Positions 6,092 to 61,980 are shown, counted from the stretch's first letter. The stretch: DNA of 64,000 nt from Parcubacteria group bacterium GW2011_GWD2_38_12 (GCA_000992345.1 LBUA01000001.1:13542-77541), one strand, 5' to 3'. Notes: a model not told the origin generated them from the letters alone. Translations and numbers: made by a program.

Positions 6092-6634
6092 ATGGTTACA
6101 TTGACGAGTATAGCGGTTTTATCCGGGTTGCTCCTTGGTATTACTGCTCCCGGAAATATAATTTTAGACAGTAAAAATGATGATGTAAGGGGATTTGCGG
6201 TTGAATTTGCGATAGATGGCTGGTCGGAAAATAGTATGAAGGCCAGTAATTCAAGCGCTATTAAGATTTCTCAGAAGACTATAAAAAATAGGAATTACAT
6301 TGCCATTGAAAGTGGCGATGTAACTGTTACGGCTTATTCTTCGACTTTTGACCAGACGGATGATTCCCCGTTTATTATGGCTTCGGGAAAATATGTTTAT
6401 GACGGAGCAATCGCGGCAAATTTCTTGTCTATTGGCACTAAAGTCCGTTTTCCGGAAAAATACGGCGATAAGATATTCACTGTAGAAGACAGAATGAATA
6501 AAAGATATGATTATAGGATGGATATTTGGATGGAAACCAGACAAGAAGCTCAAAGTTTCGGTTTAAGAAAATTGAAATATGAAATAGTGAAAGATGATTC
6601 TGATGCATTTCATAATATTGTAGCTGTTAAATAA
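6092..6634 (+). CDS. 3D-domain cell-wall-associated protein (MltA/YuiC-like 3D domain)
   Basis: N-terminal hydrophobic signal/anchor. The C-terminal YSSTFDQTDDSPFIMASGKYVYDGAIAANFLSIGTKVRF...RMDIWM segment matches the 3D domain with its conserved Asp residues. Confidence 0.7.
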   Translation: MVTLTSIAVLSGLLLGITAPGNIILDSKNDDVRGFAVEFAIDGWSENSMKASNSSAIKISQKTIKNRNYIAIESGDVTVTAYSSTFDQTDDSPFIMASGKYVYDGAIAANFLSIGTKVRFPEKYGDKIFTVEDRMNKRYDYRMDIWMETRQEAQSFGLRKLKYEIVKDDSDAFHNIVAVK

Positions 6635-6675
6635 AAACTAAAACCGTCCGCCTAAGGCGGACGGTTTTAGTTTTA
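6634..6675. terminator. Bidirectional rho-independent terminator between convergent genes
   Basis: Perfect hairpin aaaaccgtccgcc-TAAG-ggcggacggtttt flanked by A/T runs on both sides. Confidence 0.8.
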
Positions 6676-7198: not shown

Positions 7199-7276
7199 CC
7201 CCGCAATATAAGAAGGATATGTTGTGTTATCCTTCTTATATTGCGGGGTTTGACAATTTTGAGAAAAGAGTATAAT
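7199..7276. promoter_or_regulatory. Perfect 20-bp-arm inverted repeat directly abutting a near-consensus sigma70-like promoter (TTGACA-15-TATAAT)
   Basis: ccccgcaatataagaaggat / atccttcttatattgcgggg with a 10-nt loop. Followed by tttgacaattttgagaaaagagtataat. Confidence 0.5.
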
Positions 7277-7715: not shown

Positions 7716-7730
7716 TTTTTCACAAAATAC

Positions 7731-7762
7731 AAAACCCCTCATTTTGAGGGGTTTTGTATTTT
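7731..7762 (+). terminator. Rho-independent terminator
   Basis: aaaacccctc-atttt-gaggggtttt hairpin followed by a T-run. Confidence 0.75.
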
Positions 7763-7779
7763 GTGTTAATGTAAAATTA

Positions 7780-8436
7780 ATGATCAAATTTGATATAATA
7801 ACAATCTTCCCCGAAATTTTCAGCTCGTATTTTGGTAAATCCATTTTAAAGCGCGCGCAGGAGAATGAGTTGATAAAAATCGGCGTTCACGATTTGCGTA
7901 AATTTTCCATTGACAAACACAAAAAAGTGGATGACAAAGCATATGGCGGAGGACCGGGGATGGTGCTCAAAATTGAACCAATTGTTAGAGCAATTGGTTC
8001 AATTTTGAAGTTAAAAGTTAAAAGTAAAAAGTTAAAAGTAAAAAGCAGAGTTATATTATTTTCTACTCGGGGGAAAAAATTCAACAATAAAATTGCCGAA
8101 AAATTGGTAAAATATGATCAATTGATTTTAATTTGCGGTAGATATGAAGGGGTGGACGAGAGGGTAGCCAAATATATTGCCGATGAGGAAATATCCATTG
8201 GAGAGTATGTTTTGACTGGCGGTGAAATTCCGGCGATGGTTTTGGTGGATGCGGTTAGTCGCCATATTCCCGGAGTTTTAGGCAAGCAAGAATCATTAGA
8301 GGAAATAAAGGGATCGTATCCGGTTTATACGCGTCCAGAAGTTTTTGAGATGAGAAATAAAAATTTGCGCGTGCCGAAAGTTTTATTATCCGGCGATCAT
8401 AAAAAAATAGAAGAATGGAGGGAGAAATTTCACTAA
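7780..8436 (+). CDS. trmD: tRNA (guanine37-N1)-methyltransferase TrmD, carrying a Lys-rich insertion from an AAAGTTA heptamer repeat
   Basis: [13 protein letters not shown]-terminus, [16 protein letters not shown] and [11 protein letters not shown] motifs. The annotated ORF start at 7744 overlaps the upstream terminator, so the start is placed at Met 7780. Confidence 0.9.
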
Positions 8437-10588: not shown

Positions 10589-11644
10589 TTGAAACGCTTC
10601 ATGCTTCATATTTTGTGTTTCATGACTGTGATGGATTTACAGCAAAAATTAGAGAATATAAAGAAACTATTTAATCAAAAAATAAGAGATGTAAAAAATC
10701 TTGAAGTTTTGGAAAATTTGCGAGTTCAGTTTTTGGGTAGGAAAAGCGAGTTGGTGGAATTTTTAAAGGGGATTAAAAATTTAACCGAAGAAGAAAAAAG
10801 GAAATTTGGCCCCGTTGCCAATCAATTGAGGCGGGAGATGGAAAAATTAATGGAAGACGCAAAGAAATCGCTTAAAATGCGCGAGGTTGGTAAATTGATG
10901 GAAAAAGATCGTATTGATATTTCTGCTCCAGCCAAAAAAATATCTCAAGGACATTTACACCCATTAACTTTGATACAAAGGAAGATTGAGGATATTTTTC
11001 AGTCTATTGGTTTTGAAGTTGTTGAAGGACCAGAGATAGAGACGGAATACTATAATTTCAATGCCCTAAATATTCCGGCTGATCATCCAGCCAGAGAAAT
11101 GCAAGATACTTTCTGGCTCCAAACTCCAAACTCCAAACTCCAAACTCCAAAGTTACTAATGCGAACACAGACTTCATCTGTTCAGATTAGATACGCGGAA
11201 AATCATCAACCGCCGATTAGAATTATTTCCCCGGGCAGAGTTTTTAGGTTTGAAGCAACTGACCAAACTCACGATATTCAATTTCATCAAATTGAGGGAT
11301 TGATGATTGATAAAAATATTTCCCTTGCCAATCTAAAGGGAGTTTTGGAAATTTTATTTAAAAAGCTTTATGGCAAAGGAGTGGAGGTTCGTTTTAGGCC
11401 CAGTTACTTTCCCTTTGTGGAGCCGGGAGTGGAGGTAGATATGAAATTCAGAGGAAAGTGGATGGAAATTGCGGGCGCCGGAATGGTGCATCCGAAAGTT
11501 TTAAATACCATGAAAATAGATAGTCGCATTTGGCAGGGATTTGCTTTCGGTATGGGGCTTGAGAGATTGGCAATAATTAAATATGGGATTGATGATGTGA
11601 GACTGTTTTCATCGGGAGATTTGAGATTTCTGAAACAGTTTTAA
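10589..11644 (+). CDS. pheS: Phenylalanine--tRNA ligase alpha subunit, with an in-frame ACTCCAA heptamer-repeat insertion
   Basis: Class II aaRS motifs (FRPSYFPFVEPG, GAGMVHP, GMGLERL). The insert reads LQTPNSKLQTPK. Confidence 0.9.
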   Translation: MKRFMLHILCFMTVMDLQQKLENIKKLFNQKIRDVKNLEVLENLRVQFLGRKSELVEFLKGIKNLTEEEKRKFGPVANQLRREMEKLMEDAKKSLKMREVGKLMEKDRIDISAPAKKISQGHLHPLTLIQRKIEDIFQSIGFEVVEGPEIETEYYNFNALNIPADHPAREMQDTFWLQTPNSKLQTPKLLMRTQTSSVQIRYAENHQPPIRIISPGRVFRFEATDQTHDIQFHQIEGLMIDKNISLANLKGVLEILFKKLYGKGVEVRFRPSYFPFVEPGVEVDMKFRGKWMEIAGAGMVHPKVLNTMKIDSRIWQGFAFGMGLERLAIIKYGIDDVRLFSSGDLRFLKQF

Positions 11645-11668: not shown

Positions 11669-12079
11669 ATGGAAGAATTTAAAAAAACTTTAGGACATGG
11701 AAAAGAAGAAGAACATTCTCCCGAAGATTTAAGAAGAGAGATAGTGGAGATGATAGCAAAAATAAAAAAAGAAAACCCGAACGATCCCCATCTTATTAAT
11801 ATAAATACAGAAAATATTAAAGAAGAAGATAGGGAGATACAAAAAAGATATGAGCAACTCTTAAATAAAGGACTGACGTTGACCGAAGAGGAGTATAATG
11901 AATTTTTTAATGAATTTGTCATATATAGAAATAAGGTTTTTAAAGAAATTGAAGAGAAAAAGACACATTCAAGTCGCTTAGACTTTGTTGGTTATTTGGG
12001 AAATAAAATAGCAGGGAAAATTTATGTTCCCTGTAGGAAAAATTGGCCAAATAAAGGGGAGAGACCATTAAAACCATGA
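11669..12079 (+). CDS. Hypothetical highly charged (Glu/Lys-rich) protein between pheS and pheT. Its stop overlaps the pheT start (ATGA).
   Basis: ORF only. No recognisable motifs. Confidence 0.35.
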   Translation: MEEFKKTLGHGKEEEHSPEDLRREIVEMIAKIKKENPNDPHLININTENIKEEDREIQKRYEQLLNKGLTLTEEEYNEFFNEFVIYRNKVFKEIEEKKTHSSRLDFVGYLGNKIAGKIYVPCRKNWPNKGERPLKP

Positions 12080-14637
12080 AAATCTCATATAATTGGTTAA
12101 AAGATTTCGTGAACCTAAAAAGATATTCGGCTCCAGAGCTAGCGGATTTATTGACCATGAACTTTGCGGAAGTCGATGGGATTAAAACGCTTGGCGATGA
12201 TTTGATTTTTGATTTGAAAATTTTACCAGATAGAGCTTCGGATTGCCTGTCGCATTATGGAGTGGCGCGTGAGTTAGCTGCGCTAACAAAGTTAAAAGTT
12301 AAAAGTTTAAAGTTTAAAGTTAAAGAAAGTAAAAAAATAAATATAAAAGATTTGATAGAAGTTGAAAATCAAAATCCGGAGATTTGTAAAAGATATATTT
12401 CGCGAGTAATTTTGGATGTTAAGGTCGGGGCTTCTCCGAAATGGTTGAAAGAGAGACTTGAATCATTGGGTCAAAAATCTATAAATAATGTAGTGGACGC
12501 GACAAATTATGTGATGTTGGAACTGGGGCAACCGATGCATATTTTTGATTTTGATAAAATCAAAAATATGCAAGTTAAAAGTGAAAAGTCCATGCCTACC
12601 GGCAGGCAGGTAAAAGCGCAAAGTGAAATTTCAAAAATTATAATCCGAAAAGCAAAAGTCGGAGAAAAGATAACAACCCTAGATAATCAAGAAATAGAAC
12701 TAAATGAAGATGTTCTTGTAATTGTCGGCTCTGATACTCCAAACTCCAAACTCCAAACTCCAAGCTCTATTCTGGCAATTGCTGGCATAAAAGGCGGAAA
12801 GAAAGCGGAAATAGATCAAAATACCAAAAATATTATTTTGGAATCAGCGAATTTCAGCGCAGAGGCAATACGCAAAGCTTCAAAACTGACTGGAATAAGA
12901 ACAGAGTCTTCTGCCAGGTTTTCCGCTGATTTAGATCCTAATCTAGCGGGTATTGCTATTGAAAGATTGGCATCTTTATTGGTTCAAATTGCTGGAGGGG
13001 AAGCAGTTAGCGGGAAAATAGACATTTATCCACGCAAGGTTATGAGTGCGAAAGTTGCTGTTTCTTTGAATGACGTTATAAGTTTATTGGGAGAGAAAAT
13101 ATCCGAAAAAGAATTTTTGAGTATTTTTAAACAGCTAAACTTTAAGGTAGAAAAGATTTATCAAGAGAAAGAATTAATGAAATTGGCAAGGAAATTTATT
13201 GGCAGGCCATACAAATATGGGGCAAGCACAAGTCAAGATGCTCCCGAAACATTTGATTGCTCCAGTTTTGTTCAATATTTATATTGGCAAATTGGCATTG
13301 AGATTCCCAGAATTTCAGTTGAGCAGTTTTTATTTGCGCGTTCCATTGAAAAGAAAGATTTGAAAATTGGCGATCTGGCTTTTAGAAAAGGAGGAAGGCC
13401 ATATTTCTATAAAGAAACTCCAAGGGGTATTGGACATGTGGGGGTTTATATCGGGAAAGGCAGGGTTGTCCATGCATCCGGAGACAAAAAGAAAGTAATC
13501 GAAGAAAAATTAGAAACATTTTGCAAGAAAGACTTTCGCGGATTTGGAAGAATAGCTGATTTAGGGGATGAGGCTTTTGTCATCGAAATCCCCACATATA
13601 GGAGAGATATCAGAATGAAAGCTGATATTATTGAAGAGATTGGCCGGATTTACGGTTATCAAAATATAAAATCAAAATTGCCTGAAGGTATTCTGATGCT
13701 GCCTCAAAGAAATGATGAGATTTTTTGGGAAAATTTATCAAAAAACGCTTTAGTATCCACTGGATTTACTGAAGTTTATAACTACTCTTTTATCGGTGGA
13801 AAAGATTTAAAGGCGGGTTTTATTATTCCTGAAAATATTTTAGAACTTCAAAATTATATTAGCGATGACAAAAGATATTTGCGACCAAGCTTGATTTTTG
13901 GTTTTCTAAGAAATATCGAAGAAAATTTCAGGTATTTTAATGAGACGCGCATATTTGAAGTTGGCAAAATTTTCACCCTTAATGCAAAAGAAAAAATTTC
14001 TGAGAGAAAGTTTATTGGCGGGGCCATTTCCCTTAAAGGGAAAAGAAATAGCGCAAAAGCTGAGGAATTTTATGAATTAAAAGCCACCGTTGATTTATTG
14101 ATGCAGAAATTGGGTGTGCCGGAATTTTGGTATGATGATTATCAGGCCACGCCCGAGATCATTGAAGGAAAAATTTGGCACCATTTGCGTTTAGCGGAAA
14201 TTAAAATAGGTGACGAGAGAGTCGGATTTATTGGAGAAATAAATCCGAATGTCATTGGAAATTATGATATAGACGGAAGAGTGGCGATGTTTGAAATTGA
14301 TTTTGAAAAATTAGCGTGTCTCGCTAACGAAGATTTTATTTATAGTCCTATATCAAAATTCCCAGCCATAGAAAGAGATTTGGCGATACTTACTCCCATT
14401 AATGTGAAAGTTGATGATGTTTTAAATGTCCTGGAAAATATAGGCGGCCAGTTGCTCATAAATACGGATTTATTTGATGTTTATGAAGGCGATAATATTC
14501 AGGAGGGTAAAAAGAGTTTGGCCTTCCATTTGATATTCCAGTCGCGGGAAAGAACTTTATCCGATAAGGAAGTGGATGAAATTTTAGCCGAAATAATCGT
14601 TGCTTTATCCGAGGAGGGTTGGGAAATTAGAAGATAG
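12076..14637 (+). CDS. pheT: Phenylalanine--tRNA ligase beta subunit that lacks the N-terminal OB (B2) domain and carries an inserted NlpC/P60 domain plus two heptamer-repeat insertions
   Basis: MKISYNWLKDFV N-terminus, B3/4, a B5 motif pair (FKVEKI ... IPTYRRDIRMKADIIEEIGRIYGYQNI) and an FDX-ACB C-terminus. The NlpC/P60 block (RPYKYG, FDCSSFVQY, GHVGVYIG, VHAS) is embedded inside B5. Confidence 0.9.
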   Translation: MKISYNWLKDFVNLKRYSAPELADLLTMNFAEVDGIKTLGDDLIFDLKILPDRASDCLSHYGVARELAALTKLKVKSLKFKVKESKKINIKDLIEVENQNPEICKRYISRVILDVKVGASPKWLKERLESLGQKSINNVVDATNYVMLELGQPMHIFDFDKIKNMQVKSEKSMPTGRQVKAQSEISKIIIRKAKVGEKITTLDNQEIELNEDVLVIVGSDTPNSKLQTPSSILAIAGIKGGKKAEIDQNTKNIILESANFSAEAIRKASKLTGIRTESSARFSADLDPNLAGIAIERLASLLVQIAGGEAVSGKIDIYPRKVMSAKVAVSLNDVISLLGEKISEKEFLSIFKQLNFKVEKIYQEKELMKLARKFIGRPYKYGASTSQDAPETFDCSSFVQYLYWQIGIEIPRISVEQFLFARSIEKKDLKIGDLAFRKGGRPYFYKETPRGIGHVGVYIGKGRVVHASGDKKKVIEEKLETFCKKDFRGFGRIADLGDEAFVIEIPTYRRDIRMKADIIEEIGRIYGYQNIKSKLPEGILMLPQRNDEIFWENLSKNALVSTGFTEVYNYSFIGGKDLKAGFIIPENILELQNYISDDKRYLRPSLIFGFLRNIEENFRYFNETRIFEVGKIFTLNAKEKISERKFIGGAISLKGKRNSAKAEEFYELKATVDLLMQKLGVPEFWYDDYQATPEIIEGKIWHHLRLAEIKIGDERVGFIGEINPNVIGNYDIDGRVAMFEIDFEKLACLANEDFIYSPISKFPAIERDLAILTPINVKVDDVLNVLENIGGQLLINTDLFDVYEGDNIQEGKKSLAFHLIFQSRERTLSDKEVDEILAEIIVALSEEGWEIRR

Positions 14638-14671
14638 TGATTATTTATATAATTAGATATAAATTTCAAGT

Positions 14672-14702
14672 AAAAATCCCGCTTAACTAAGCGGGATTTT
14701 TA
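14672..14702 (+). terminator. Rho-independent terminator after pheT
   Basis: aaaaatcccgcttaactaagcgggattttt. Confidence 0.8.
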
Positions 14703-14854
14703 CTTATTTTTAGGGTTGTATAAATGTTTAAAATTTGATATAATTTGATTATAAAACAAGTTGAAAAAACGCTTTTTAGTCCGCTTTATAAGCGGATTTC
14801 TAATTGATATTAGGCTTAAATTGCAGAATTGTATTTTGTAATTTAAGGCAGTAA

Positions 14855-17003: not shown

Positions 17004-17567
17004 ATGCAAAACACAAAACACAAAACACAAAATAAAATTATACCTCAAAAATTTTTTGAAAAGCCAACATTGGAAGTGACGGAGAATTTACTTGGGAAAT
17101 ATTTGGTTAGAAAAACAGGTGGTAAGACGATTGCTGGAATAATAACGGAACTGGAAGCATATGTTGGTGAAACTGATTTAGCGTGTCACGCCGCAAAAGG
17201 GCGAACAAAAAGGACAGAGATTATGTATCAAGATGCCGGAACTCTGTATGTTTATATGATTTACGGGATGTTTTATTGTTTGAATGTCGTGACCGAGAAA
17301 AAAGATTTTCCTTCGGCAATATTGATACGGGCAGTAAAAGTAGACGGTATTGATTTTATGGCGACAAGTGGTCCGGGGAAATTATGTAAAATTTTAAAAA
17401 TAGATCGCAAATTCAACGGGTTGAAATTAGGCAAGAAAAGCGGACTTTGGATAGAAGATAGGGGGATAAAAATAAAAAAATCACAAATTATAAAAAGCAA
17501 AAGAATAGGGGTTGATTATGCCGGACATTGTAAAGATTATTTGTGGAGGTTTTCTATTAAAATTTAA
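17004..17567 (+). CDS. mpg: DNA-3-methyladenine glycosylase (Mpg/AAG family); N-terminus encoded by a CAAAACA heptamer repeat
   Basis: TELEAYVGETDLACHA, YVYMIYGMFYCLNVV and GPGKLCK motifs of the AAG fold. Confidence 0.8.
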   Translation: MQNTKHKTQNKIIPQKFFEKPTLEVTENLLGKYLVRKTGGKTIAGIITELEAYVGETDLACHAAKGRTKRTEIMYQDAGTLYVYMIYGMFYCLNVVTEKKDFPSAILIRAVKVDGIDFMATSGPGKLCKILKIDRKFNGLKLGKKSGLWIEDRGIKIKKSQIIKSKRIGVDYAGHCKDYLWRFSIKI

Positions 17568-18584: not shown

Positions 18585-19862
18585 TTGGAGCATTCCGGCA
18601 AATTTTTAATAAAAGGTGGAAGAAAGCTGAGCGGCGAGATTGATATAATGGGCAGCAAAAATGCGGCAACACCGATATTGGCTGCGACATTGTTGACGAG
18701 TGAAGAATGTATTATCGATAACATCCCTTTGATTGAAGATGTATTTAGATTGATTGAAATTTTAAAACACCTTGGCGCAGAAGCTGATTTTATTGGTAAG
18801 AGAAAATTGAAAATAAGAGCAAGAAACATAGACGTAGGTAGATTAAATAATGCAGGCGTTGGCAAATTAAGATCCTCGGTTTTATTGATGGGGCCGCTTC
18901 TCGCTAGATTCAGGAAAATTCAAACCAAAAATCCGGGAGGATGTCTTATCGGTAATCGTCCGCTTGATACTCATCTTGAGGCATTTGTTGATTTAGGAGC
19001 CAAGATTGCGCCAAATGGCAACAATCTTGATATAATTTTAAAAAATAAACCCAAAGATGAAATAGTGCTTAAAGAATTTTCCGTAACTGCGACGGAAAAT
19101 GTCTTAATGTTTGCTTCATTGATGCCACAAAGAACAATTATAAAAATAGCCGCAATGGAGCCACATGTACGAGATTTAATAAAATTTTTACGCGCCATGG
19201 GCGTAAAAATAAAATTATTAGACAGTCATACCATTGAAGTAGTGGGAGTAAAAAAACTTCGCGGCGCAAAGCATAAAATTATTCCGGATCAAATAGAGGC
19301 GGGAACGTTTTTAATAATTGGAGCTTTGATAGGCAGTGATATTTTAGTAAAAAATTGCAGAATAGATCATTTGGATTTAATTTTAAAAAAGTTGAAAGAA
19401 TTTAATATTGATTATAAGTTTGAAAAGCGAAGGGGAAATTTTGCCGATATTAGAATTAAGACAAATTATCCATTAAGAGCGGCAAAGGTTCAGGCGATGC
19501 CATATCCGGGAATTCCTACGGATTTGCAATCAATCTTTGGTGTCTTAGCCACTCAAGCGCAGGGGACAAGCATGATTCATGACCCATTATTTGAAGGAAG
19601 ATTCAAATATCTGGATGAGCTTGTGAAAATGGGTGCTAATGTTGTTGTCTGCGATCCGCACAGAGCATTAATTACCGGTCGGACTCAGCTTCAAGGAACT
19701 AATATAACAAGTTATGATTTACGCGCGGGAGCGTCTTTGATTATTGCAGGCTTGATTGCTAGCGGAGAAACTGTTATAAATGACGCATATCAAGTGGATA
19801 GAGGATATGAAAGGATAGAAGAAAGGTTGCAGAAGTTGGGAGCGGACATAACCAGAATTTAG
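18585..19862 (+). CDS. murA: UDP-N-acetylglucosamine 1-carboxyvinyltransferase (TTG start likely)
   Basis: KFLIKGGRKLSGEIDIMGSKNAATPIL, GNRPLDTHL, and a C-terminal DRGYERIEERL segment that aligns with the E. coli MurA C-terminus. Confidence 0.9.
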   Translation: MEHSGKFLIKGGRKLSGEIDIMGSKNAATPILAATLLTSEECIIDNIPLIEDVFRLIEILKHLGAEADFIGKRKLKIRARNIDVGRLNNAGVGKLRSSVLLMGPLLARFRKIQTKNPGGCLIGNRPLDTHLEAFVDLGAKIAPNGNNLDIILKNKPKDEIVLKEFSVTATENVLMFASLMPQRTIIKIAAMEPHVRDLIKFLRAMGVKIKLLDSHTIEVVGVKKLRGAKHKIIPDQIEAGTFLIIGALIGSDILVKNCRIDHLDLILKKLKEFNIDYKFEKRRGNFADIRIKTNYPLRAAKVQAMPYPGIPTDLQSIFGVLATQAQGTSMIHDPLFEGRFKYLDELVKMGANVVVCDPHRALITGRTQLQGTNITSYDLRAGASLIIAGLIASGETVINDAYQVDRGYERIEERLQKLGADITRI

Positions 19863-19936
19863 AATTTTGAATTTAGAATTTAACGGTATTTAAAACTTAT
19901 ATTCTAAATACTACATTTTATAATTCTTTCAAGAAC

Positions 19937-20944: not shown

Positions 20945-20954
20945 GATTTTTGTC

Positions 20955-21075
20955 CAAATTTTAGAGCTGAAAGCGAATAAAATTTGGTTACAAAATCTTA
21001 CCCTGTTAAATTCCCGCGAAGCGGGGGCGCCGAAGGCGCATTTAACAGGGTGTGCTGGGCTTTGCGATTGTTTAA
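20955..21075 (+). repeat. Family-1 structured repeat element, copy 1 (shorter variant), directly upstream of the GT4 gene
   Basis: Shares about 50 nt of 5' extension with copy 2 (ttttagagc.gaaagc.aataaaattt) and the nested hairpin core cttaccctgttaaat-[ccccgcGAAGcggggg]-[cgccGAAggcg]-catttaacaggg. Confidence 0.7.
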
Positions 21076-23435: not shown

Positions 23436-24587
23436 TTGCGAGTTGACACTTTTATTTTTGTCAATCGTCAATCGTCAATTGTCAATCGTTTTTTGAAAGT
23501 AGCAATTTCATTAATTATTATTTTTCTTATTTTAGGCGCTATTTTGTTTTTTGCAGTTCCTTTTTTGTTGCAAAATATTTCTTTTCCCGGATTTTCGTCT
23601 AGTGGCTCAGGCATTGCCGGAATTTTCAAGACCATTGATGGGGGCGATTTTTGGTTTTCAAAAAATAATATTGAATCTTCAAAGTCAACGATTGGATCCG
23701 CAAATATTTTGGATTTAGTTCTTGACCCTTTTGATAATAATATTATGTATGCGGGTACTAATGGCGCCGGGATTCTTAAAAGCATAAATAATGGCGAGAG
23801 CTGGAAACGATTAGTTGATGACAATAACTTATTGGCATCTAGCGCGGTTATCAATCAAATTGCGATTAACCCTCGTGACCCCGCTCATATTTTTATTGCC
23901 GCTTTTCAGGGAGGCAGTGGCGGCATTTTTAAAACAGAAGATGCGGGACGTAGTTGGAAGCAGCTTTACATCGTTCCGTTGGCGAAACAAGACATTAAGA
24001 CGTTGGTGATTGATCCTTTAAATCCTAATTTTCTTTATGCTGGCACTACGGCTGGAGGGTTTTTGGTCAGTTCTGACGGGGGGGAGTCATGGAGAGCGCT
24101 TAAATGGTTTTTCGACCCGATAAAGAAGATTGTAATAAATCCGTTTTCATCGGCAGAGCTTTTTTTGGTTCTTGAAAACAGGGGGTTTTATAAGACGGCC
24201 GATAGGGGAGAGAACTGGAAAGATTTAACCCATACTTTTTCTGGCTATCCGTCGGCTATTAGAGTAGAGAATATTGTTTTAGATCCTCAAAGACCCAACG
24301 TTTTGTATATGACTTCCATGTATGGATTATTGAAATCTACTGATGGCGGAAATAGCTGGAGGTCGCTTAAAATTTTAGTGTCGCCCGAGACTCTGCCCGT
24401 GCAAGACATCGCAATTGATAGAAATAATTATAAGATGATTTATATAAGTGCAGGATCTAAGATTTATATTTCTAATGATGAGGGAGAGAATTGGACTGTA
24501 AAAAGTTTAAATACCGGAAAAAACGCGAAGCTAATTAGGATAGATTATAAAAATCCAAAAGTAATTTTTGTGGGGATACATAAATAA
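23436..24587 (+). CDS. Membrane-anchored BNR/Asp-box repeat beta-propeller protein (Ycf48/sortilin-like). Start codon uncertain (TTG).
   Basis: N-terminal TM helix, then six or more S-x-D-x-G-x-(S/T)-W Asp-box repeats (NNGESW, DAGRSW, DGGESW, DRGENW, DGGNSW, DEGENW). Confidence 0.7.
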   Translation: MRVDTFIFVNRQSSIVNRFLKVAISLIIIFLILGAILFFAVPFLLQNISFPGFSSSGSGIAGIFKTIDGGDFWFSKNNIESSKSTIGSANILDLVLDPFDNNIMYAGTNGAGILKSINNGESWKRLVDDNNLLASSAVINQIAINPRDPAHIFIAAFQGGSGGIFKTEDAGRSWKQLYIVPLAKQDIKTLVIDPLNPNFLYAGTTAGGFLVSSDGGESWRALKWFFDPIKKIVINPFSSAELFLVLENRGFYKTADRGENWKDLTHTFSGYPSAIRVENIVLDPQRPNVLYMTSMYGLLKSTDGGNSWRSLKILVSPETLPVQDIAIDRNNYKMIYISAGSKIYISNDEGENWTVKSLNTGKNAKLIRIDYKNPKVIFVGIHK

Positions 24588-25316: not shown

Positions 25317-26399
25317 ATGCTCACTTTTATTATTTTTATATTAGTTCTTGGCGTTTTGGTGGTTGTCCATGAATTCGGGCATTTTTGGATTGCGCGTAGA
25401 AATGGTGTTCGCGTTGATGAGTTTGGTTTTGGTTTTCCGCCAAAACTTTTGGGCATTAAAAGAGGCGAGACATTATATTCTTTCAATGCCTTGCCACTTG
25501 GCGGATTTGTAAAAATTTTCGGAGAAGATATGGAAGAGGGGAAAGATGATCCGCGAAGTTTTGCGACTAAAAGCGTTGGAGCAAGATTTCGTATTATCGT
25601 TGCGGGAGTGGTGATGAATTTTATTTTAGCCGTTGTTTTATTTTCTTTCGGGTCTGCTATTGGTTTGCCCAGCGCCATAGACGGGTCTAACGAAAAATAT
25701 GCCCGTGATATCAGTGTGCAGATTATTGGTGTAGCAAAAAATTCGCCGGCGGAATTATCAGGGATTAAGATGGGGGATAAGATTTTGGAAGTTGGAGGTT
25801 GGAAGTTGGAAGTTGGAGACAGCCAAATTGAAAAAATTCAGAAAGTAATAAGCGAAAACAAGGGGCAAGAAATAATTATCACTGTTCAAAGAAAAGATGA
25901 AATTTTGAATATCAAAACAATTCCAAGGGTTGAAATTCCGAAAGACGAAGGGGCGTTAGGCATTGCGATGGCCAAAGTCGGTATAGTTGCCTATCCAGTT
26001 TACCTGGCGCCAATTAAGGGGGTGGAAGCGGCTTTTGGCGTCGGAATAAATTTTATTCACTCAGTCTATTCAATATTTAATATATGGATTACTGACGGAA
26101 GAATGATAGGAGACATTGCCGGCCCGGTGGGAATTTTCACTTTAACCGGACAAGCCGCGCGACTTGGATTTATTTATCTTCTGCAATTTGTCGCGATGCT
26201 TTCTGTTAATCTGGCGATTATTAACGCTGTTCCTTTTCCGGCGCTTGACGGAGGAAGATTATTATTTTTAGGGTTGGAAAAAATAAAGGGTTCGCCGATA
26301 AGCATTAAATGGGAAAAATACGCCCATATTATCGGTTTCGCGATTTTAATTTTATTGATCTTATTGATTACATATAAAGATGTAAGGAGAATGTTTTAG
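25317..26399 (+). CDS. rseP: RIP metalloprotease RseP (site-2 protease) with a PDZ domain; carries a GAAGTTG heptamer-derived insert
   Basis: HEFGHF zinc motif in TM1, a PDZ domain, and the C-terminal LDGG motif (NAVPFPALDGGR). Confidence 0.85.
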   Translation: MLTFIIFILVLGVLVVVHEFGHFWIARRNGVRVDEFGFGFPPKLLGIKRGETLYSFNALPLGGFVKIFGEDMEEGKDDPRSFATKSVGARFRIIVAGVVMNFILAVVLFSFGSAIGLPSAIDGSNEKYARDISVQIIGVAKNSPAELSGIKMGDKILEVGGWKLEVGDSQIEKIQKVISENKGQEIIITVQRKDEILNIKTIPRVEIPKDEGALGIAMAKVGIVAYPVYLAPIKGVEAAFGVGINFIHSVYSIFNIWITDGRMIGDIAGPVGIFTLTGQAARLGFIYLLQFVAMLSVNLAIINAVPFPALDGGRLLFLGLEKIKGSPISIKWEKYAHIIGFAILILLILLITYKDVRRMF

Positions 26400-27674: not shown

Positions 27675-28726
<1,052 letters not shown>

Positions 28727-32133: not shown

Positions 32134-32202
32134 ATTCGCTATTCGCTAATCGCTATTCGCTAATCGTTTTTTATGATTTGCGTTTTGCATTTTGCGTTTT
32201 GC
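32134..32202. repeat. Intergenic tandem repeats (ATTCGCTA/ATCGCTA units, then GCGTTTTGCATTTTGCGTTTTGC)
   Basis: Direct reading of attcgctattcgctaatcgctattcgctaatcg ... gatttgcgttttgcattttgcgttttgc. Confidence 0.8.
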
Positions 32203-32213
32203 TTTTTAGCAAG

Positions 32214-35848: not shown

Positions 35849-35906
35849 CTTTTAGATTCTATTTAAGAAGTTAACAATTAACAATTAACAATTAATAGCT
35901 AATTCA

Positions 35907-42521: not shown

Positions 42522-44192
42522 TTATTTAATTATATAATTAAATCCTTCCCCCTTTTCTAATTTTCCGGGAGCCAGAGATTGCAATTGTTTTGTTAAATTA
42601 TCATCATACTCCATTAATATAATAACATACGATTTATCATCATAAAAATTTCGCTTTTTTATATCGTTCGGCAATAAATAAATTATATTCTTTTCAAGTT
42701 GGTTGGTTTTTTTATAGCTGTTTGTTATAAACATTGTTGTCTGACTGGACATGGGAATGTTATTGACCAGTGCGCCCCCGCTATTTATTATTACGTATTT
42801 TTTTATATCCCCGGGCAGATTATTGATAAATCGGCCGATTTTAACGTAATTGTCGGAGAAAGCTCCTTTTATATTGGGATTATTAGCATAATTGACAAAG
42901 TATTTTCGATATCCGCTAAATGCCACGTAAAATAAGATAATAAAATATAGTGGCATAATTAATTTCTTGTTGGAATATAGGAAGATTTTCTTTTTAAAAA
43001 AATTATAAAGTGTAAAAGTTCCAAGGCCGGCAAGTATGAATGTTGGAGGGATGGCGCCGATGGATCTTAAAGCATGCGGCAGGCCTTCGGTGCTCAAGAT
43101 TGACGGAGCAAGCATAGCGGAAAACCACGCAAGTAAAAATATGTGTTGCAAGGGGATGGGATTGTGCGGGAATTTTTTCAGTAATTGGTAGCAGAATTTC
43201 AGGAATTTTTTTAAACAGATGAAAATACCGATTAAGAAGAAAATGCCGACAGGCCAGAAAAGCAATGGTGAACCCGCAAAGTTATGCCGCCAATTCCAGT
43301 CGCCAATAAAATTAAATTGCGCAAGTGTCAAAATAGAGCTTTTTATTACTTCTGTTATTGGATTCTCCGAAGCGAAAATCGAAACCTGTCCGGCTCTGCC
43401 GATGAAATCATCCGGATGAATGTAGAAATAATAGAATATCGGCAATGCCGCAAGAAGGGCAAAAGAGCCGTAAATAACGATGTTATAGAAGAATTCTTTT
43501 AATAATTCTTTTTTGTTTGCGCTATTTTCAATATCGCCGGCGCCATTTGTTCTTATTATTTCAATTAATTTAAAAATCAAAACTGCAATTACCACAATTG
43601 GAACGATACGAAAAGCGATATAGGTGTGAAAACCAAGACCCATGAATATGCCAGCCCAAATAAAATTAATATTTTTTTTAGTTCTAAATCCTTTAAATAA
43701 AAAATAAAAAGAAAAAGTCGTGAGAAACGGCAACATAATGGCGCGAAAACCAATACGGGAGAAGTTTGTATGCCAGAAGCTCACAGCGAGAAAGAAAGAT
43801 GATAAAAGAGCAATAATTTTTGAATTATGAAGTATGAATTTTGAATTATGGAGATTATTTTCTGGCTCCAATTCTTGATTCATAATTCTTGATTCATAAT
43901 TCTTTTTGCAAAAAAGCTCTTTGGTCAATAAATACACTCCTAAAACTGTTAATACGCCAAACAATGCGCTTACTAGTCGCAATGCCCACGGCTCATTGCC
44001 GAATGTCGCGACAGATAGCGCCTGGATATTTATAAAAAGTCCTTCGCGACCGTTATTTTCCGGATAAAATATCTTAAAATTTCCAGTTGAGAGCGCTTCC
44101 AGCGCGTTGTTGCCGTTCATAGCTTCGTCCGGGTAAAGTCCGGGCGGCATCTGGGCTATATTGTAGAAACGGAAAAAAGTCGCTATAATCAA
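42522..44192 (-). CDS. Polytopic membrane glycosyltransferase, GT-C superfamily (ArnT/PMT-like), second paralogue
   Basis: N-terminal RFYNIAQMPPGLYPDEAMNG (DE motif in the first extracytoplasmic loop), and more than 10 TM helices. Confidence 0.55.
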   Translation of the reverse strand: MIIATFFRFYNIAQMPPGLYPDEAMNGNNALEALSTGNFKIFYPENNGREGLFINIQALSVATFGNEPWALRLVSALFGVLTVLGVYLLTKELFCKKNYESRIMNQELEPENNLHNSKFILHNSKIIALLSSFFLAVSFWHTNFSRIGFRAIMLPFLTTFSFYFLFKGFRTKKNINFIWAGIFMGLGFHTYIAFRIVPIVVIAVLIFKLIEIIRTNGAGDIENSANKKELLKEFFYNIVIYGSFALLAALPIFYYFYIHPDDFIGRAGQVSIFASENPITEVIKSSILTLAQFNFIGDWNWRHNFAGSPLLFWPVGIFFLIGIFICLKKFLKFCYQLLKKFPHNPIPLQHIFLLAWFSAMLAPSILSTEGLPHALRSIGAIPPTFILAGLGTFTLYNFFKKKIFLYSNKKLIMPLYFIILFYVAFSGYRKYFVNYANNPNIKGAFSDNYVKIGRFINNLPGDIKKYVIINSGGALVNNIPMSSQTTMFITNSYKKTNQLEKNIIYLLPNDIKKRNFYDDKSYVIILMEYDDNLTKQLQSLAPGKLEKGEGFNYIIK

Positions 44193-48023: not shown

Positions 48024-48034
48024 GGGCTTTATTA

Positions 48035-48198
48035 AAATTTTAGAGCAGAAAGCAAATAAAATTTAGATAGTAAATCTTAACCTTGTTAAATCCCCGCGGA
48101 GCTGGGGCGCCAAAGGCGCATTTAACAGGGTACTCGATTTTGAAATAAAATTTTGCGCACTCCGCAAAGCTTCGTTTCAAAATTTCGATAAAATCGGC
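48035..48198 (+). repeat. Family-1 structured repeat element, copy 2 (full length); its last three bases are the ATG of the downstream gene
   Basis: About 85% identical to 53725-53871. Nested hairpins: ccttgttaaat/atttaacaggg enclosing ccccgc-gga-gctgggg and gcgcc-aaa-ggcgc, then ttttgaaat...[tttgcg-cactc-cgcaaa]...cgtttcaaaa, then ..aaaatcggcATG. Confidence 0.75.
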
Positions 48199-48684
48199 AT
48201 GTATGAGATTTATAAATTTTTACATGGAATTGGAATTTTAATGACTGTTGGCGTGATTACCGCGTCGCTTATTTACGGTTGGTATAAAAAATTATTCCCA
48301 AATAATAAATTATTAACCAAAATCCAATTTCCATATAAGTGGATATCTCCGTCGGTGAAAATTGGCCTTGTTGTTTTAATTATTTCCGGCCTTGGGATGT
48401 ATGCGGAGAGAGCGGAACAATTCAATAGTTCGGCGGTTTTTTGGATAAAAATGGGTTTTGTTTTGGCGCTTGTAATAAATAATATTTGGTTAAACAGCAT
48501 TTTAAAACCAAAAGGCAAAAAGATATTTTCCGATCCAGTTCTTGCCAATTCGCCGGAAGCCTTAAAACTTAAAAAGACATTTAATTTTGCAGAAAATCTG
48601 TCTTTATTTTTATGGTTCACAACCATGATTGTAAGTTTTCTTTTGCCTGAGGGCCGTGAAGAGCGCGGAGGAAGAGAATTTTAA
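48199..48684 (+). CDS. Hypothetical membrane protein (4 TM)
   Basis: ORF with TM helices. The start codon is supplied by the upstream repeat element. Confidence 0.4.
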   Translation: MYEIYKFLHGIGILMTVGVITASLIYGWYKKLFPNNKLLTKIQFPYKWISPSVKIGLVVLIISGLGMYAERAEQFNSSAVFWIKMGFVLALVINNIWLNSILKPKGKKIFSDPVLANSPEALKLKKTFNFAENLSLFLWFTTMIVSFLLPEGREERGGREF

Positions 48685-48766
48685 TTATAGATTTATAACA
48701 CACAGAGCATGCAGCATGAAGTCCGCCGCGGCGGATTCATGTTTCATGTCTCATGTTTTATGTTGC

Positions 48767-49882
48767 ATGAGCTTAGTTTTATATCGTAAATATCGTCCTA
48801 AAACTTTTGCCGAGATTAGCGGGCAAAAGCATATTGTTGAAACCTTGGTCAATGCCATAAAGAGCGGGCGAGTAGCGCATGCCTATTTATTTTGCGGTCC
48901 GCGCGGCACAGGCAAGACGACTATGGCGCGTTTACTTGCCAAAGCATTAAATTGCGAAAAACTTTTAACTTTTAACTTTAAACTTTCAACTGACCCAATA
49001 GAGCCGTGTAATAAATGTTTGAGTTGTCAGTCAATCAACGATGGCAATGCTCTGGATATCATTGAAATAGACGCGGCTTCCAATAGGGGTATTAATGAAA
49101 TTCGCGATTTGCGCGAAGGAGTAAAATTTTCTCCAGCCGCGCTTAAATACAAAGTATTTATTATTGACGAGGTACATATGTTAACCAAAGAAGCGTTCAA
49201 TGCTCTGCTTAAAACACTGGAAGAGCCGCCCCAGCACGCCATTTTTATTTTGGCCACAACCGAAGCGAATAAAATACCAGCGACGATTTTATCGCGTTGT
49301 CAGAGATTTGATTTTAGAAAATTATCGGTCAATGAGATTATAGAAAGGCTGAATGGAATTATAAAAAAGGAGGGGATAGATTGCGGCGATGATGTTGTAA
49401 GCTTTATTGCGACAATCAGCGATGGCGGACTTCGCGATGCTGAGTCATTGCTTGGCCAAATTATTAGCGTATCGAGCGGGAAAATAGATTTGGAAACGGT
49501 TCAGGATGTTTTAGGGATTGCCGACATGAGAGATGTATATGCATTTGTTGATTTGCTTATTAATAATAATCATCAGGAAATTTTTAAATTTATCAATAAT
49601 CTTTTTAATCAGGGAAAAGATATGGCGGAGTTTATGAGATCATCTTCTAATTATTTAAGAAAAATGATGATTTGTCAGATTGACAATGCGCTTGTTGCCA
49701 CCGTAGCCAAAGATATGACACGCGAACAACAGGTAAATTTGTGCTCCCAGGCGCAAAAATTTGAAAATGCCAAGATTCATAAAATAGTGGCCCGACTAGT
49801 GGATGCTGAAAATCAAATTAAAAAATCATTCTCTCCTATTATTCCCATTGAGCTTGCTATGATTGATATTTTAGGGATATAA
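48767..49882 (+). CDS. dnaX: DNA polymerase III subunit gamma/tau (short, gamma-like), with an in-frame TTAACTT (reverse AAAGTTA) heptamer insert
   Basis: YRPKTFAEISGQKHIV, Walker A GPRGTGKTT, Zn module CNKCLSCQ, DEVHML and SRCQRF. The insert reads LLTFNFKLSTD between the Walker A and the zinc module. Confidence 0.9.
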   Translation: MSLVLYRKYRPKTFAEISGQKHIVETLVNAIKSGRVAHAYLFCGPRGTGKTTMARLLAKALNCEKLLTFNFKLSTDPIEPCNKCLSCQSINDGNALDIIEIDAASNRGINEIRDLREGVKFSPAALKYKVFIIDEVHMLTKEAFNALLKTLEEPPQHAIFILATTEANKIPATILSRCQRFDFRKLSVNEIIERLNGIIKKEGIDCGDDVVSFIATISDGGLRDAESLLGQIISVSSGKIDLETVQDVLGIADMRDVYAFVDLLINNNHQEIFKFINNLFNQGKDMAEFMRSSSNYLRKMMICQIDNALVATVAKDMTREQQVNLCSQAQKFENAKIHKIVARLVDAENQIKKSFSPIIPIELAMIDILGI

Positions 49883-49884: not shown

Positions 49885-49912
49885 TTCTAGCTTCTAGCTT
49901 CTAGCTTCTAGC
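49885..49912. repeat. TTCTAGC heptamer x4 tandem repeat immediately upstream of tRNA-Gln
   Basis: ttctagcttctagcttctagcttctagc. Confidence 0.85.
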
Positions 49913-49916
49913 TTTT

Positions 49917-53636: not shown

Positions 53637-53724
53637 GGGCTTCGTCTAAAATTTGAATCCGCCCAGTCTCGATTTTTCTTGAAAAATCGAGGATGCTCAA
53701 TTACAAAGTAATCGGCACTGGCGG

Positions 53725-53868
53725 AGCACAAATTTTAGAAACAAAACCTTACCCTGTTAAATCCCCGCGAAGCGGGGGTGCGAAAGCGCATTTAACAGGG
53801 TGCTCATTTTTGAAACGAAATTTTGCGCACTCCGCAAAGCTCCGTTTCAAAATTTTGACAAAATCGGC
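53725..53868 (+). repeat. Family-1 structured repeat element, copy 3 (full length); it ends at the ATG (53869) that most likely starts the ABC-F gene
   Basis: cttaccctgttaaat-[ccccgcGAAGcggggg]-[tgcgAAAGcgca]-tttaacaggg ... ttttgaaacg-aaat-[tttgcg-cactc-cgcaaa]-gctc-cgtttcaaaa-ttttgacaaaatcggcATG. Confidence 0.75.
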
Positions 53869-55377
53869 ATGTCGCAAAATGCAAAGCCCCGTAGCGAACG
53901 AAGTTCTGCTGCAGGAGAAGTTATAATCAGATTTGATGAAGTGTCTTTTGAACACGGACCCCAAAAACCCATTCTTGAAGAGGTGGGTTTTTCGGTGCGT
54001 AGAGGAATGAAAGTCACGCTGATGGGGCAAAATGGCGCCGGAAAAAGCACTATTTTTCAACTCATTACCGGAGCGGCAAAACCCGAATCAGGCGCGGTGC
54101 ATATCGGGTCGGATATTATTGTCGCTATTTCGCGGCAAGTAATTCCTCGCGATCAGTTGGATTTAACAGTGCGGGAATTTTTTGAGAAATGTTTTGATAA
54201 AAAAGTTTACGATATAGATCCTAAAATTGATGAGGTGTTGGAAGTGGTGAATTTAAAAGGCCACGAAAAAATGCACAAAAGGATTATTAAGTCATTTTCC
54301 GGCGGTCAGCAGGCGCGGCTTCTTTTGGCGTCGGCGCTCATTCAAGATCCCGATGTATTGCTTCTTGATGAGCCGACCAACAATTTGGATAAAGCCGGTA
54401 TCGCGCATCTGACAAATTTTTTAGTTAATTATAAGAAGACTTGTATTGTTATTTCTCACGACGCGGATTTTCTCAACGCTTTCACGCAGGGCGTTTTGTA
54501 TCTTGATATATTTACTCGCAAAATAGAACAATATGTCGGTAATTATTTTGATGTGGTGAAACAAATCTCTGTTCGAATAGAAAAAGAAAATAGAAAGAAT
54601 GCGTTATTAGCAAAAGAGATTCAGGAGAATAAAGACAAGGCAAACTTTTTTGCGCACAAAGGCGGACGTATGAGGTTGCTCGCTAAACGTATGCGTGAGA
54701 AAGCCGAGGAGATGGAAGAAGAAAAAGTTGATGTGCGAAAAGAAGATAAACCCATCAGGCCGTTTATTATTCCTTTCCAAGAGGATTTGATAGGGGAGAT
54801 TATAAATATCTCATCTTTCACGACGATGAAAAATCATCAGCCAGCAGAACACAAAGCCAAAATTTCAATGAAGAAAAATCAGCACTTGCTCTTATCCGGC
54901 CCCAATGGCATCGGCAAAAGCACATTACTAAAATCCATCGCCAAAGGTACTGTAGGGGGCGTGGCGATTGCCCGAGGTGTCCGCGTCGGGTATTATTGCC
55001 AAGACTTTTCTACGCTTAATTTTGATGAAACTGTTTATGAATCGCTCGTGTCGGCGATGGAGAAAGCGACCGGAAAAAAAGACGATGAATTCATCCGTGC
55101 TATCGCTGCGAGTTTTATGATTAGAGGTGATATGGTTTATTCTAAAATCGGCAGTTTGTCCGAAGGGCAAAAGGGGCTCGTTGCTTTTGCGCGACTGGTA
55201 ATTCAAAAACCCGGCCTTTTGATACTTGATGAGCCAACCAATCACATCAATTTTCGCCATTTACCAGTCATCGCTGGAGCGCTCAACAAATACGACGGCG
55301 CGATGATTCTCGTCAGCCATGTCCCCGAATTCGTCTCCCAAATCCGCATTGATGAGATATTGGATTTAGAGAAATAG
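53869..55377 (+). CDS. ABC-F family ATPase (tandem ABC domains, no TMD; ribosome-associated EttA/Uup-like). Start placed at the ATG supplied by the repeat; the annotated ORF extends upstream to 53800 through the repeat.
   Basis: Two Walker A motifs (GQNGAGKST; GPNGIGKST), two signatures (FSGGQQARLLLASAL; LSEGQKGLVAFARL) and an inter-domain linker with a charged arm. Confidence 0.85.
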   Translation: MSQNAKPRSERSSAAGEVIIRFDEVSFEHGPQKPILEEVGFSVRRGMKVTLMGQNGAGKSTIFQLITGAAKPESGAVHIGSDIIVAISRQVIPRDQLDLTVREFFEKCFDKKVYDIDPKIDEVLEVVNLKGHEKMHKRIIKSFSGGQQARLLLASALIQDPDVLLLDEPTNNLDKAGIAHLTNFLVNYKKTCIVISHDADFLNAFTQGVLYLDIFTRKIEQYVGNYFDVVKQISVRIEKENRKNALLAKEIQENKDKANFFAHKGGRMRLLAKRMREKAEEMEEEKVDVRKEDKPIRPFIIPFQEDLIGEIINISSFTTMKNHQPAEHKAKISMKKNQHLLLSGPNGIGKSTLLKSIAKGTVGGVAIARGVRVGYYCQDFSTLNFDETVYESLVSAMEKATGKKDDEFIRAIAASFMIRGDMVYSKIGSLSEGQKGLVAFARLVIQKPGLLILDEPTNHINFRHLPVIAGALNKYDGAMILVSHVPEFVSQIRIDEILDLEK

Positions 55378-61917: not shown

Positions 61918-61952
61918 AAAAGCACGCCCCCGCTTCGCGGGGGCGTGCTTTT
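61918..61952. terminator. GC-rich hairpin (aaagcacgccccc-GCTTCGC-gggggcgtgcttttt) in the divergent spacer between the flavoprotein gene and rnr
   Basis: 13-bp stem, with A-run and T-run flanks. The motif is the complement of the GCGAAGC mini-hairpin seen in the Family-1 repeats. Confidence 0.6.
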
Positions 61953-61980
61953 TAGATAAAGAAGTGATAGAGTGATATTT

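Follow-up and report, generated by a model that had tools for sequence, protein, structure and literature searches.

A structured intergenic repeat in a Parcubacteria genome and the occurrence of its core in distant phyla

A stretch of 64,000 nt from Parcubacteria group bacterium GW2011_GWD2_38_12 (LBUA01000001.1:13542-77541; hereafter the window), a groundwater organism whose genome occurs in many samples from the Rifle aquifer, contains three copies of a short repeat on its + strand, located at 20945-21051, 48024-48198 and 53637-53868. The three copies may well be insertions of a non-autonomous selfish intergenic element, of the kind represented by repetitive extragenic palindromes and bacterial interspersed mosaic elements (REP/BIME) or by miniature inverted-repeat transposable elements (MITEs). 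Each copy would be a composite, in which lineage-specific hairpin modules (A and C) surround a core that is common to several phyla.

The copies are 107, 175 and 232 nt long and none has an open reading frame (ORF) of its own. A 26-nt core probe with up to three mismatches finds three matches in the window and none is expected (100 shuffles), in agreement with the original prediction, which had named three copies. No fourth copy was detected in the 64-kb window with the covariance model R1 (see below, filters off). In pairwise BLAST, copies 2 and 3 match at 86% over 145 nt, copies 1 and 2 at 88% over 97 nt, and copies 1 and 3 at 92% over 63 nt. All three share the nested palindrome ACCCTGTTAAAT-(6-bp stem, GAA or GGA loop)-(4-5-bp stem, GAA, AAA or GAAA loop)-ATTTAACAGGGT, which forms a three-way junction with no unpaired base. 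The anatomy had been described correctly, both for the outer stem CCCTGTTAAAT/ATTTAACAGGG with its mini-hairpins CCCCGC-GAA-GCGGGG and GCGCC-GAA-GGCGC and for the second domain of copies 2 and 3 (TTTTGAAACG..TTTGCG-CACTC-CGCAAA..CGTTTCAAAA, followed by the tail AAAATCGGCATG). The start of copy 3, formerly placed at 53725, is corrected to 53637, because this copy has an expanded 5' hairpin module. The predicted folds of the three copies have z-scores of -3.8 to -5.2 relative to dinucleotide shuffles, none of 200 shuffles being equally stable.

The 5' hairpin (module A) is common to copies 1 and 2 and expanded in copy 3. The 3' hairpin (module C) is common to copies 2 and 3 and missing in copy 1. 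Copies 2 and 3 fill the whole gap between their flanking genes, from the first base after the upstream stop codon (TAA, then GGGCTT) to the last base before the start codon (..ATCGGC, then ATG). Their terminal inverted repeats (14 nt at 86% in copy 2, 17 nt at 82% in copy 3) are set back by 4-7 nt from the ends of the element; for lack of module C, copy 1 has no such repeats. The features of the three copies are as follows.

20945-20999, + strand: copy 1, module A; 5' hairpin with arms 20947-20963 / 20978-20994; begins one base after the mreB stop
21000-21051, + strand: copy 1, core; ACCCTGTTAAAT, TCCCGC-GAA-GCGGGG (21012-21026), GCGCC-GAA-GGCGC (21027-21039), ATTTAACAGGGT
48024-48079, + strand: copy 2, module A; hairpin; begins one base after the gtrA-like stop; left terminal inverted repeat TTTATTAAAATTTT (48028-48041)
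48080-48131, + strand: copy 2, core; G-T wobble in the outer stem (CCTTG); hairpin 1 48092-48106 with a C/T mismatch; hairpin 2 48107-48119
48132-48198, + strand: copy 2, module C; long hairpin 48137-48157 / 48163-48183; right terminal inverted repeat AAAATTTCGATAAA (48179-48192); the end ..ATCGGC abuts ATG 48199 of a 161-aa membrane protein
53637-53750, + strand: copy 3, expanded module A; 30-nt arms 53645-53674 / 53710-53739; inner hairpin 53668-53691; begins one base after the DEAD-box helicase stop
53751-53801, + strand: copy 3, core; hairpin 1 53763-53777; hairpin 2 GTGC-GAAA-GCGC 53778-53789
53802-53868, + strand: copy 3, module C; hairpin 53808-53827 / 53833-53852; tail ..GACAAAATCGGC; abuts ATG 53869 of an ABC-F ATPase

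Module A (UUUUAGAGCU-GAAA-GCGAAUAAAAU; 20958-20985 and 48038-48065) resembles the repeat:anti-repeat hairpin of the engineered SpCas9 single guide. This likeness is due to chance, as the alignment score of 24-28 compares with 27 for unrelated window segments.

Fold and distribution of the core

Homologues of the core were sought by a pattern scan of one genome per species, in which only the outer stem was fixed (TGTTAAAT-N25-31-ATTTAACARGG) and the interior was left free. At least 119 loci in genome contigs match this pattern. The counts given below for other genomes apply to the matches listed. Most of these carry a CCC...GGG extension on both strands, and the free interior again consists of two short hairpins, with sequences that are wholly different between genomes. 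The covariance model R1, seeded with 13 diverse members, scores about 100 of the 119 matches listed at E<1e-3 with the same three-way junction and also finds extra copies missed by the pattern. The window cores reach 71.6 bits (E 4e-18, copy 1), 52.1 bits (copy 2) and 49.6 bits (copy 3). According to the record titles, the positive loci comprise about 52 from Desulfobacterota, about 33 from Patescibacteria of many classes and 3 from Omnitrophota; the rest are scattered, some of them probably mis-binned. Loci that fail R1 belong to Bacteroidota, Firmicutes and similar groups and lack the hairpins. As a negative control, the same pattern was applied to 2.9 million viral contigs, where none of the 21 matches has the CCC/GGG extension or the hairpins; a phage origin is rejected, the viral matches being chance ones.

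Some metagenome-assembled genomes of Desulfobacterales contain 5-6 of the loci listed, compared with a density of 3 copies in 64 kb in the window. The original prediction would have failed had further copies and covariation been absent and the orientation been random; this is not the case, as many further copies exist. The distribution of the core over several phyla had not been foreseen in it. The element family is large, probably mobile and common to ultra-small bacteria and sulfate reducers. The sub-family of this genome, searched in metagenomes with a pattern specific for hairpin 1, returned only copies 1 and 3 themselves. Rfam 15, to which the original prediction had pointed as a check, holds no matching family: in the window and 18 related loci only tRNAs reach threshold (gathering and E-value thresholds tried), and the best match below threshold is CRISPR-DR51 with 28.8 bits against a threshold of 45. 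In the open literature, with figures and subscription journals outside reach, neither the arm sequences nor related concepts led to a description. The core family is apparently undescribed so far.

The R1-based alignment has 150 rows, 130 of them distinct, and includes both strands of many elements, so that the rows are not independent. Standard pairs occupy 93.9% of cells, compared to 33-52% when the partners are slid by 1-3 columns, and the covariation score is 0.452 compared to 0.138 in shuffles (0/500 shuffles reach 0.452). All 11 inner-hairpin pairs show all four Watson-Crick types, with changes on both sides. The original claim that the single-strand fold is under selection is supported by these 130 distinct rows and both inner helices. 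The G-U wobble and the compensatory differences cited for it in the window copies are real but too few to serve as evidence; the covariation support comes from the more than 100 homologues elsewhere.

The core as a whole measures 48-52 nt and has an outer stem of 11-12 bp of fixed sequence, usually followed by 3-4 further covarying pairs. Within this stem, the 11 inner pairs hardly vary at all, and their rare variants are compensated (TGTGAAAT/ATTTCACA in loci L071 and L079; AAAC/GTTT in L079). The four outermost pairs covary (U-A/C-G and A-U/G-C), with core flanks of the types TTYA/TRAA or CYYG/CRRG. The pattern is that of a fixed-sequence helix capped by structure-only hairpins.

A palindromic and intergenic sequence could also be a double-stranded DNA operator or an intrinsic terminator, which we consider hardly likely at all. 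The half-site spacing ranges from 24 to 34 bp across the family with the hairpins kept throughout, which fits folding and not a rigid dimer. The stem is followed by GGGTRAA or GGGCRRG and not by a T-tract, and the same sequence is found in phyla without common regulators.

Strong covariation is, however, a property of functional RNAs as well. The core could be an RNA element that is useful to the host, its junction acting in operon mRNA as a barrier to 3'-exonucleases, as a processing or punctuation site or as a translational insulator. The CCCUGUUAAAU/AUUUAACAGGG helix would then be the target of a conserved RNA-binding protein or RNase, and orientation would be irrelevant, as both transcripts show the same helix. 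We regard this explanation as conceivable but rather unlikely. In addition to the missing Rfam match, the loops and the helix argue against it. The 170 hairpin loops of 85 distinct elements include 133 triloops, of which 119 are closed by 5'C-G3' and 68 are of the type GNA or its complement TNC (12.5% expected by chance); the tetraloops are not of the GNRA/UNCG types, GNRA and UUCG being nearly absent. Triloops of the type d(C-GNA-G) are unusually stable in DNA, while structured RNAs prefer GNRA/UNCG tetraloops. The dominance of C-G-closed triloops is therefore atypical of structured RNAs and leans to folding at the DNA level, without being decisive. Eleven fully paired positions of invariant sequence are also unusual in an RNA helix.

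Mobile carriers and turnover at orthologous sites

In Desulfobacterales, the core is found in two kinds of surroundings. Family A comprises a conserved unit of about 202 bp, in which a long stem encloses the core and one more hairpin (z = -7.3). Its ends are terminal inverted repeats of 19-20 bp, GACGGCTTCGTAAAAAGTCC...GACTTTTTACGAGACCATC. Perfect direct repeats of 6 bp, different in each copy (CTATTT, ATTCTT, AAACTT and AATGTT), border four of the five complete units, and the fifth has a repeat with 5/6 matches. The family A unit is a classical MITE. Its parent was sought among plasmids, with no BLAST match in PLSDB, and among insertion sequences (IS), where solo matches to the terminal motif bracket no transposase. 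The terminal repeat motif GGCTTCGT..AAAA seemed to be common to the window element and the Desulfobacterales MITE. It is rejected as a coincidence, as only copy 3 shows it and family B lacks it.

Family B has the same core with different flanks and lacks the inverted repeats of family A. The flanks (L009, L017, L046, L050, L060, L091 and others) contain runs of heptamers of the type CAAATTC/CAAATCT, reminiscent of the arrays in the window.

Five genomes from different classes of the candidate phyla radiation (CPR; L066, L068, L083, L116, L125) have a palindrome of about 140 nt whose arms are conserved and whose tip is formed by the core, ..AAGGAnCGnAGTGACTATAnTTTTCTTAA-core-TGATGATTTTTATAGTCnTT..CCTTAAAAATC (core +/- 45 nt). 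In all five, the arm TGATGATTTTTATA is situated 37-40 nt upstream of a start codon, and the genes are unrelated (e.g. dnaJ in L116). A TATAAT-like hexamer lies within this arm. As the core occurs in family A, in family B, in the long CPR palindrome and between modules A and C of the window, it is a module that recurs in unrelated carriers.

The synteny around the three window copies was compared with related genomes. Downstream of gtrA and upstream of the 161-aa protein gene and dnaX (copy 2), gene order is kept in the relatives. The gap is an empty one of 11 nt in L158 (68% identity), TAA-TTTTTTAAATT-ATG. In L157 (73%), a decayed homologue is found, with an intact module A, the outer stem CCCCGTTAAAT/ATTTGACAAGG and one inner hairpin only. 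In L155 and L156 (82-84%), heptamer arrays take the place of the element. At the ABC-F site (copy 3), the element is absent in four relatives (L151-L154, 78-90% identity), in which the upstream genes are different. Between mreB and the GT4 gene (copy 1), three relatives with MreB proteins of 89-90% identity and full synteny over 17-21 kb have unrelated gaps of 71-90 nt, and no core is found anywhere in these 17-21-kb loci (L159-L161; R1, E<=0.1). The window elements are thus lineage-specific gains that are able to decay. Such dispensability and decay in close relatives speaks against a host-useful RNA. The suggestion that the element is mobile or amplified and MITE-like is supported in outline, by the Desulfobacterales MITEs, the absence at orthologous sites and the 14-17-nt terminal inverted repeats of copies 2 and 3.

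The heptamers in the gaps of the relatives at the copy 1 and copy 2 sites are CAGTTAA/GTTAAnn and inverted copies (L155 800-952, L156 1-131, L159 11009-11096, L160 11009-11079, L161 7283-7372). The centre of the conserved core arm, TTAACAG, recalls the CAGTTAA heptamers. CTGTTAA occurs 6 times in the window with 6.4 expected, and the link of the arm to the heptamer arrays may be an AT-rich coincidence.

The ABC-F proteins of the relatives begin with M-(A/Q)-N-(N)-E-V-I-I-R-F, and the window protein (ATG 53869) has about 13 extra N-terminal residues. Within 53869-53910, ATGCAAA..ACGAAGTT resembles the start of the relatives (ATGCAAAACGAAGTT in L154); this string is located 10 nt downstream, out of frame, with insertions of 12 nt and 17 nt. 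The comparison suggests that the start codon of the ABC-F gene may have been replaced after remodelling of the gap.

Gene context, possible function and relation to known systems

The cores of the family are intergenic. They are found in 65 tandem, 11 convergent and 9 divergent gaps; 19 apparent cases inside ORFs are start-codon over-extensions of the crude gene model. On the gene-sense strand of the tandem contexts (n=65), the loop TTC is found 15 times and GAA 12 times. The difference between sense and antisense folding energy is negative in 30 and positive in 34 of 64 elements (p=0.29, not significant), and G-U pairs number 49 in sense and 59 in antisense. In one operon (L110), the order of the two inner hairpins is swapped between copies. 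The lack of an orientation preference is expected from the symmetry of the core: its reverse complement has an identical outer helix, and neither strand nor transcript is privileged. No consistent preference for a strand of action emerges from the sense and antisense folding energies, from the numbers of G-T against A-C, from concordance within elements or from RNA and DNA parameters applied to the window copies.

For an RNA element, the missing asymmetry in folding energy and G-U content is unfavourable, as is the use of ordinary intrinsic terminators by this genome (61918-61953). Other observations of gene context speak for such an element. Cores are placed in the short gaps of co-directional genes, at times only 11-13 nt from the stop and start codons (L110, L028), and must therefore be co-transcribed. 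In the enclosing stem of family A, the non-Watson-Crick cells of one strand comprise about 15 G-U and 3 A-C, and for 9 of 12 tandem cases this G-U-rich strand has the direction of the genes. In the window, all three copies are in sense orientation to their operons. The original prediction had noted their location immediately 5' of a gene. The position is as described, but it says little, because 50 of the 63 ORFs in the window are on the + strand and most gaps are shorter than 100 nt.

The window copies are flanked by mreB and a GT4 glycosyltransferase gene (copy 1), by a gtrA-like gene and the 161-aa membrane protein gene followed by dnaX (copy 2), and by genes for a DEAD-box helicase and an ABC-F ATPase (copy 3). 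All-against-all clustering of 1,368 neighbouring ORFs of the matches listed revealed no recurrent neighbour family. Neighbours and genes between paired cores are unrelated housekeeping genes such as pilB, ftsE, gap, pgk, prfB, dnaJ, ileS, ybeY, suhB and rpiB. The lack of an orientation bias, the mixed gap types, the unrelated neighbours and the absence upstream of orthologues speak against a riboswitch or gene-specific 5' leader. The cis-regulatory leader originally proposed is therefore unsupported, with neither an orientation preference nor a recurrent neighbour nor conservation upstream of the same genes in relatives.

An outward promoter is also rejected. In copy 2 (+) and copy 3 (-), -35-like matches are due to the TTAACA of the arm, but these are unconserved and the count of the region is at chance (29 promoter-like matches found, 25.4 expected). 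This count bears as well on the notion that the copies are small-RNA genes in their own right, about 110-230 nt each and paralogues of one structured non-coding RNA. The multi-hairpin architecture with its good folding z-scores and the independence from the orientation of the neighbours across the family would agree with such genes. Flanks of 11-13 nt in many instances leave no room for a promoter or terminator, however, modules A and C are unconserved outside the lineage, and the core alone is only a symmetric hairpin. We consider small-RNA genes very improbable.

As a selfish intergenic element, the repeat would work in both orientations, since either DNA strand, or either transcript, folds to the same outer helix. 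A putative protein may recognize the fixed helix and the junction geometry on transiently single-stranded, folded DNA, and this recognition could underlie the spread or retention of the element. The copies occupy very short gaps between housekeeping genes, and effects on flanking genes would be by-products, possibly including a very stable structure in polycistronic mRNA and the new start codon of the ABC-F gene.

Several observations weigh against a selfish element. No target duplication is visible at the window copies, which also show no clean empty-site junction; at the mreB/GT4 site, the gap differs wholesale from that of the relatives and is not a simple clean insertion. A mobilizing enzyme (transposase, recombinase, Y1/HUH) is absent among the 48 window ORFs scanned with Pfam, and none adjoins the about 120 cores elsewhere among the matches listed. 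The target duplications in Desulfobacterales are those of the carrier MITE and not of the core; the core itself could be carried along and have its function at the level of the host. In the long CPR form, the constant orientation (5/5 upstream of a start codon) hints at a role in RNA or expression in that subfamily. Diverged copies within one genome (L110, L079, L071) keep their hairpins by compensatory change, which is more than decaying junk predicts and would be expected of a functional RNA. Finally, the symmetry of the core implies that strand tests cannot separate DNA from RNA.

Among known repeats, REP, BIME and REPIN elements of Proteobacteria, which are mobilized by the IS200-like Y1 transposase RAYT, are similar in being short, GC-rich, hairpin-forming intergenic repeats that lie inside operons in either orientation and form mosaic units. 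Their hairpins are maintained by compensatory change, and the enzyme presumed to recognize them is specific for structure and acts on single-stranded DNA. According to PMC3733652, a REP consists of a single imperfect palindrome of 20-40 nt that bears a GTAG or CGTC tag at one end. REP sequences differ from species to species, and a genome contains hundreds of them. Here, in contrast, one and the same stem recurs across phyla, 3 copies are found in the 64-kb window, and the core is a nested palindrome of 48-52 nt with two inner hairpins and a three-way junction. No RAYT was found among the 48 window ORFs or beside or between the cores of the 119 matches listed. As the tag is missing and the palindrome is not a single one, the element is not a REP.

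Bacterial MITEs (Correia/NEMIS, ERIC, RUP; reviewed in PMC3184786) are likewise non-coding, shorter than 300 bp and intergenic, with long stem-loops and terminal inverted repeats. Their presence varies between relatives, and the carriers in Desulfobacterales show both clear terminal inverted repeats and target duplications of 6 bp. In MITEs, however, the termini are conserved and the interior drifts, whereas here an internal module is conserved in unrelated carriers, the fold is selected and no parent IS is known. The window copies agree with the definition of a MITE in part only: they are short, multi-copy and present or absent between relatives, but lack the target duplication. The hairpins near the ends of IS200/IS605 elements and the related PATEs are comparable as single-stranded DNA hairpins read by an enzyme, with non-autonomous copies scattered between genes. 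They differ in having distinct left and right ends, tnpA/tnpB nearby and no three-way junction; none of these ends and genes was seen here. The element belongs with the structured intergenic repeats and is unusual in its perfect three-way junction, its cross-phylum stem and its recurrence in different carriers.

A further system that reads folded DNA is the integron, and the core could be a structure-specific recombination site similar to attC. A tyrosine recombinase of the Xer/IntI clade would bind the arm, the mini-hairpins would serve as a structural cap and adjacent DNA would be moved or rearranged. We consider this improbable. The likeness consists in recognition of a folded strand (here putative), a short fixed box of 7 bp in the stem, a remainder conserved as structure only and a variable apical part. 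CCCT and four variable pairs outside the box form an 8-bp stretch, the size of a crossover region, and intergenic gaps at the same sites are replaced wholesale between relatives. GTTAAAT/ATTTAAC fit the integron core-site consensus GTTRRRY/RYYYAAC, and in the XerD arm of E. coli dif (TTATGTTAAAT) the outer 8 bp equal TGTTAAAT; these two likenesses are leads and not tests. Read 5' to 3', an attC site starts with R'' (RYYYAAC) and ends with R' (GTTRRRY). The order is reversed here on both strands (GTTAAAT 5', ATTTAAC 3'), GTT... coming first and ...AAC last, so that the box is directed away from the hairpin. All bases of the outer stem are paired up to the junction, and extrahelical bases, an unpaired central spacer and a second arm (L box) are absent. 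Neither cassette arrays nor an integrase (IntI) are found nearby, in the 48 window ORFs or at the loci among the matches listed, and the genes on either side belong to the core housekeeping set, in conserved synteny. Membership in attC is rejected on account of the reversed arms and the other absent features; a functional analogy may still apply.

A broader proposal, which we advance with considerable reserve, is that the invariant helix and its two-hairpin cap are the site of a putative structure-specific enzyme or binding protein common to Patescibacteria, Desulfobacterota and Omnitrophota. It could represent either a new attC-like recombination or transposition system, perhaps of the Xer/IntI type, or a new, widespread class of structured RNA that punctuates operons, and would have been captured repeatedly by mobile carriers. 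The core stem is identical base for base in distant phyla of the same anoxic habitats. It follows from this identity that either a conserved partner has a fixed specificity or a module used by several carriers has spread horizontally. The partner, if identified, would constitute a new system of structure-specific DNA or RNA recognition. The small genomes of CPR bacteria are thought to be almost free of repeated and mobile DNA; here, a structured repeat enters and leaves tiny intergenic gaps. The core also provides a compact, easily searched marker of gene flow between ultra-small episymbionts and sediment bacteria. On the practical side, such elements can shift start codons, as for the ABC-F gene here, and confuse gene callers.

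Other features of the window

Tandem arrays with a period of 7 are strikingly many in the window, with 3.6-5.4 copies each and a unit of their own in each array. These and the arrays with a period of 14 are located as follows.

Period 7: 8008-8045, 11117-11151, 12288-12324, 12736-12767, 17007-17032, 19854-19882, 23460-23489
Period 7, continued: 25785-25817, 32134-32207, 35871-35895, 43821-43904, 48736-48769, 48960-48991, 49885-49914
Period 14: 32746, 37190, 40526

Several period-7 arrays are situated inside essential genes with strong Pfam hits, where they are in frame as short peptide inserts. CTCCAAA arrays encode LQTPNSKLQTP in both pheS and pheT, and AAGTTAA arrays encode KLKVKSxKxKVK in both trmD and pheT. 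Others are found in gaps, e.g. directly 5' of tRNA-Gln. PheT (12076-14637) also contains an inserted NlpC/P60 peptidase domain (aa 376-485), and the same insertion is present in L159 and L160.

A second mreB, upstream of mreC, is split into two overlapping ORFs (27696-28262 and 28259-28726) that match the MreB profile at 1-165 and 180-325. In the relatives, the second mreB is one gene of 345 aa (L159 17350-18387, L161 13674-14711). The split could be due to a frameshift, a pseudogene or an assembly error.

Long perfect hairpins bordered on both sides by A- and T-tracts are found at 61918-61953, 6637-6672, 7199-7248, 7721-7765 and 14668-14705; they are bidirectional intrinsic terminators. Weak R1 matches at 6632, 7195, 7721, 14673 and 61924 are such ordinary terminators and not further copies of the repeat. 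The terminator at 61918 has the same CCCGC-TTC-GCGGG mini-hairpin as the repeat, with a 17-nt match at 61925.

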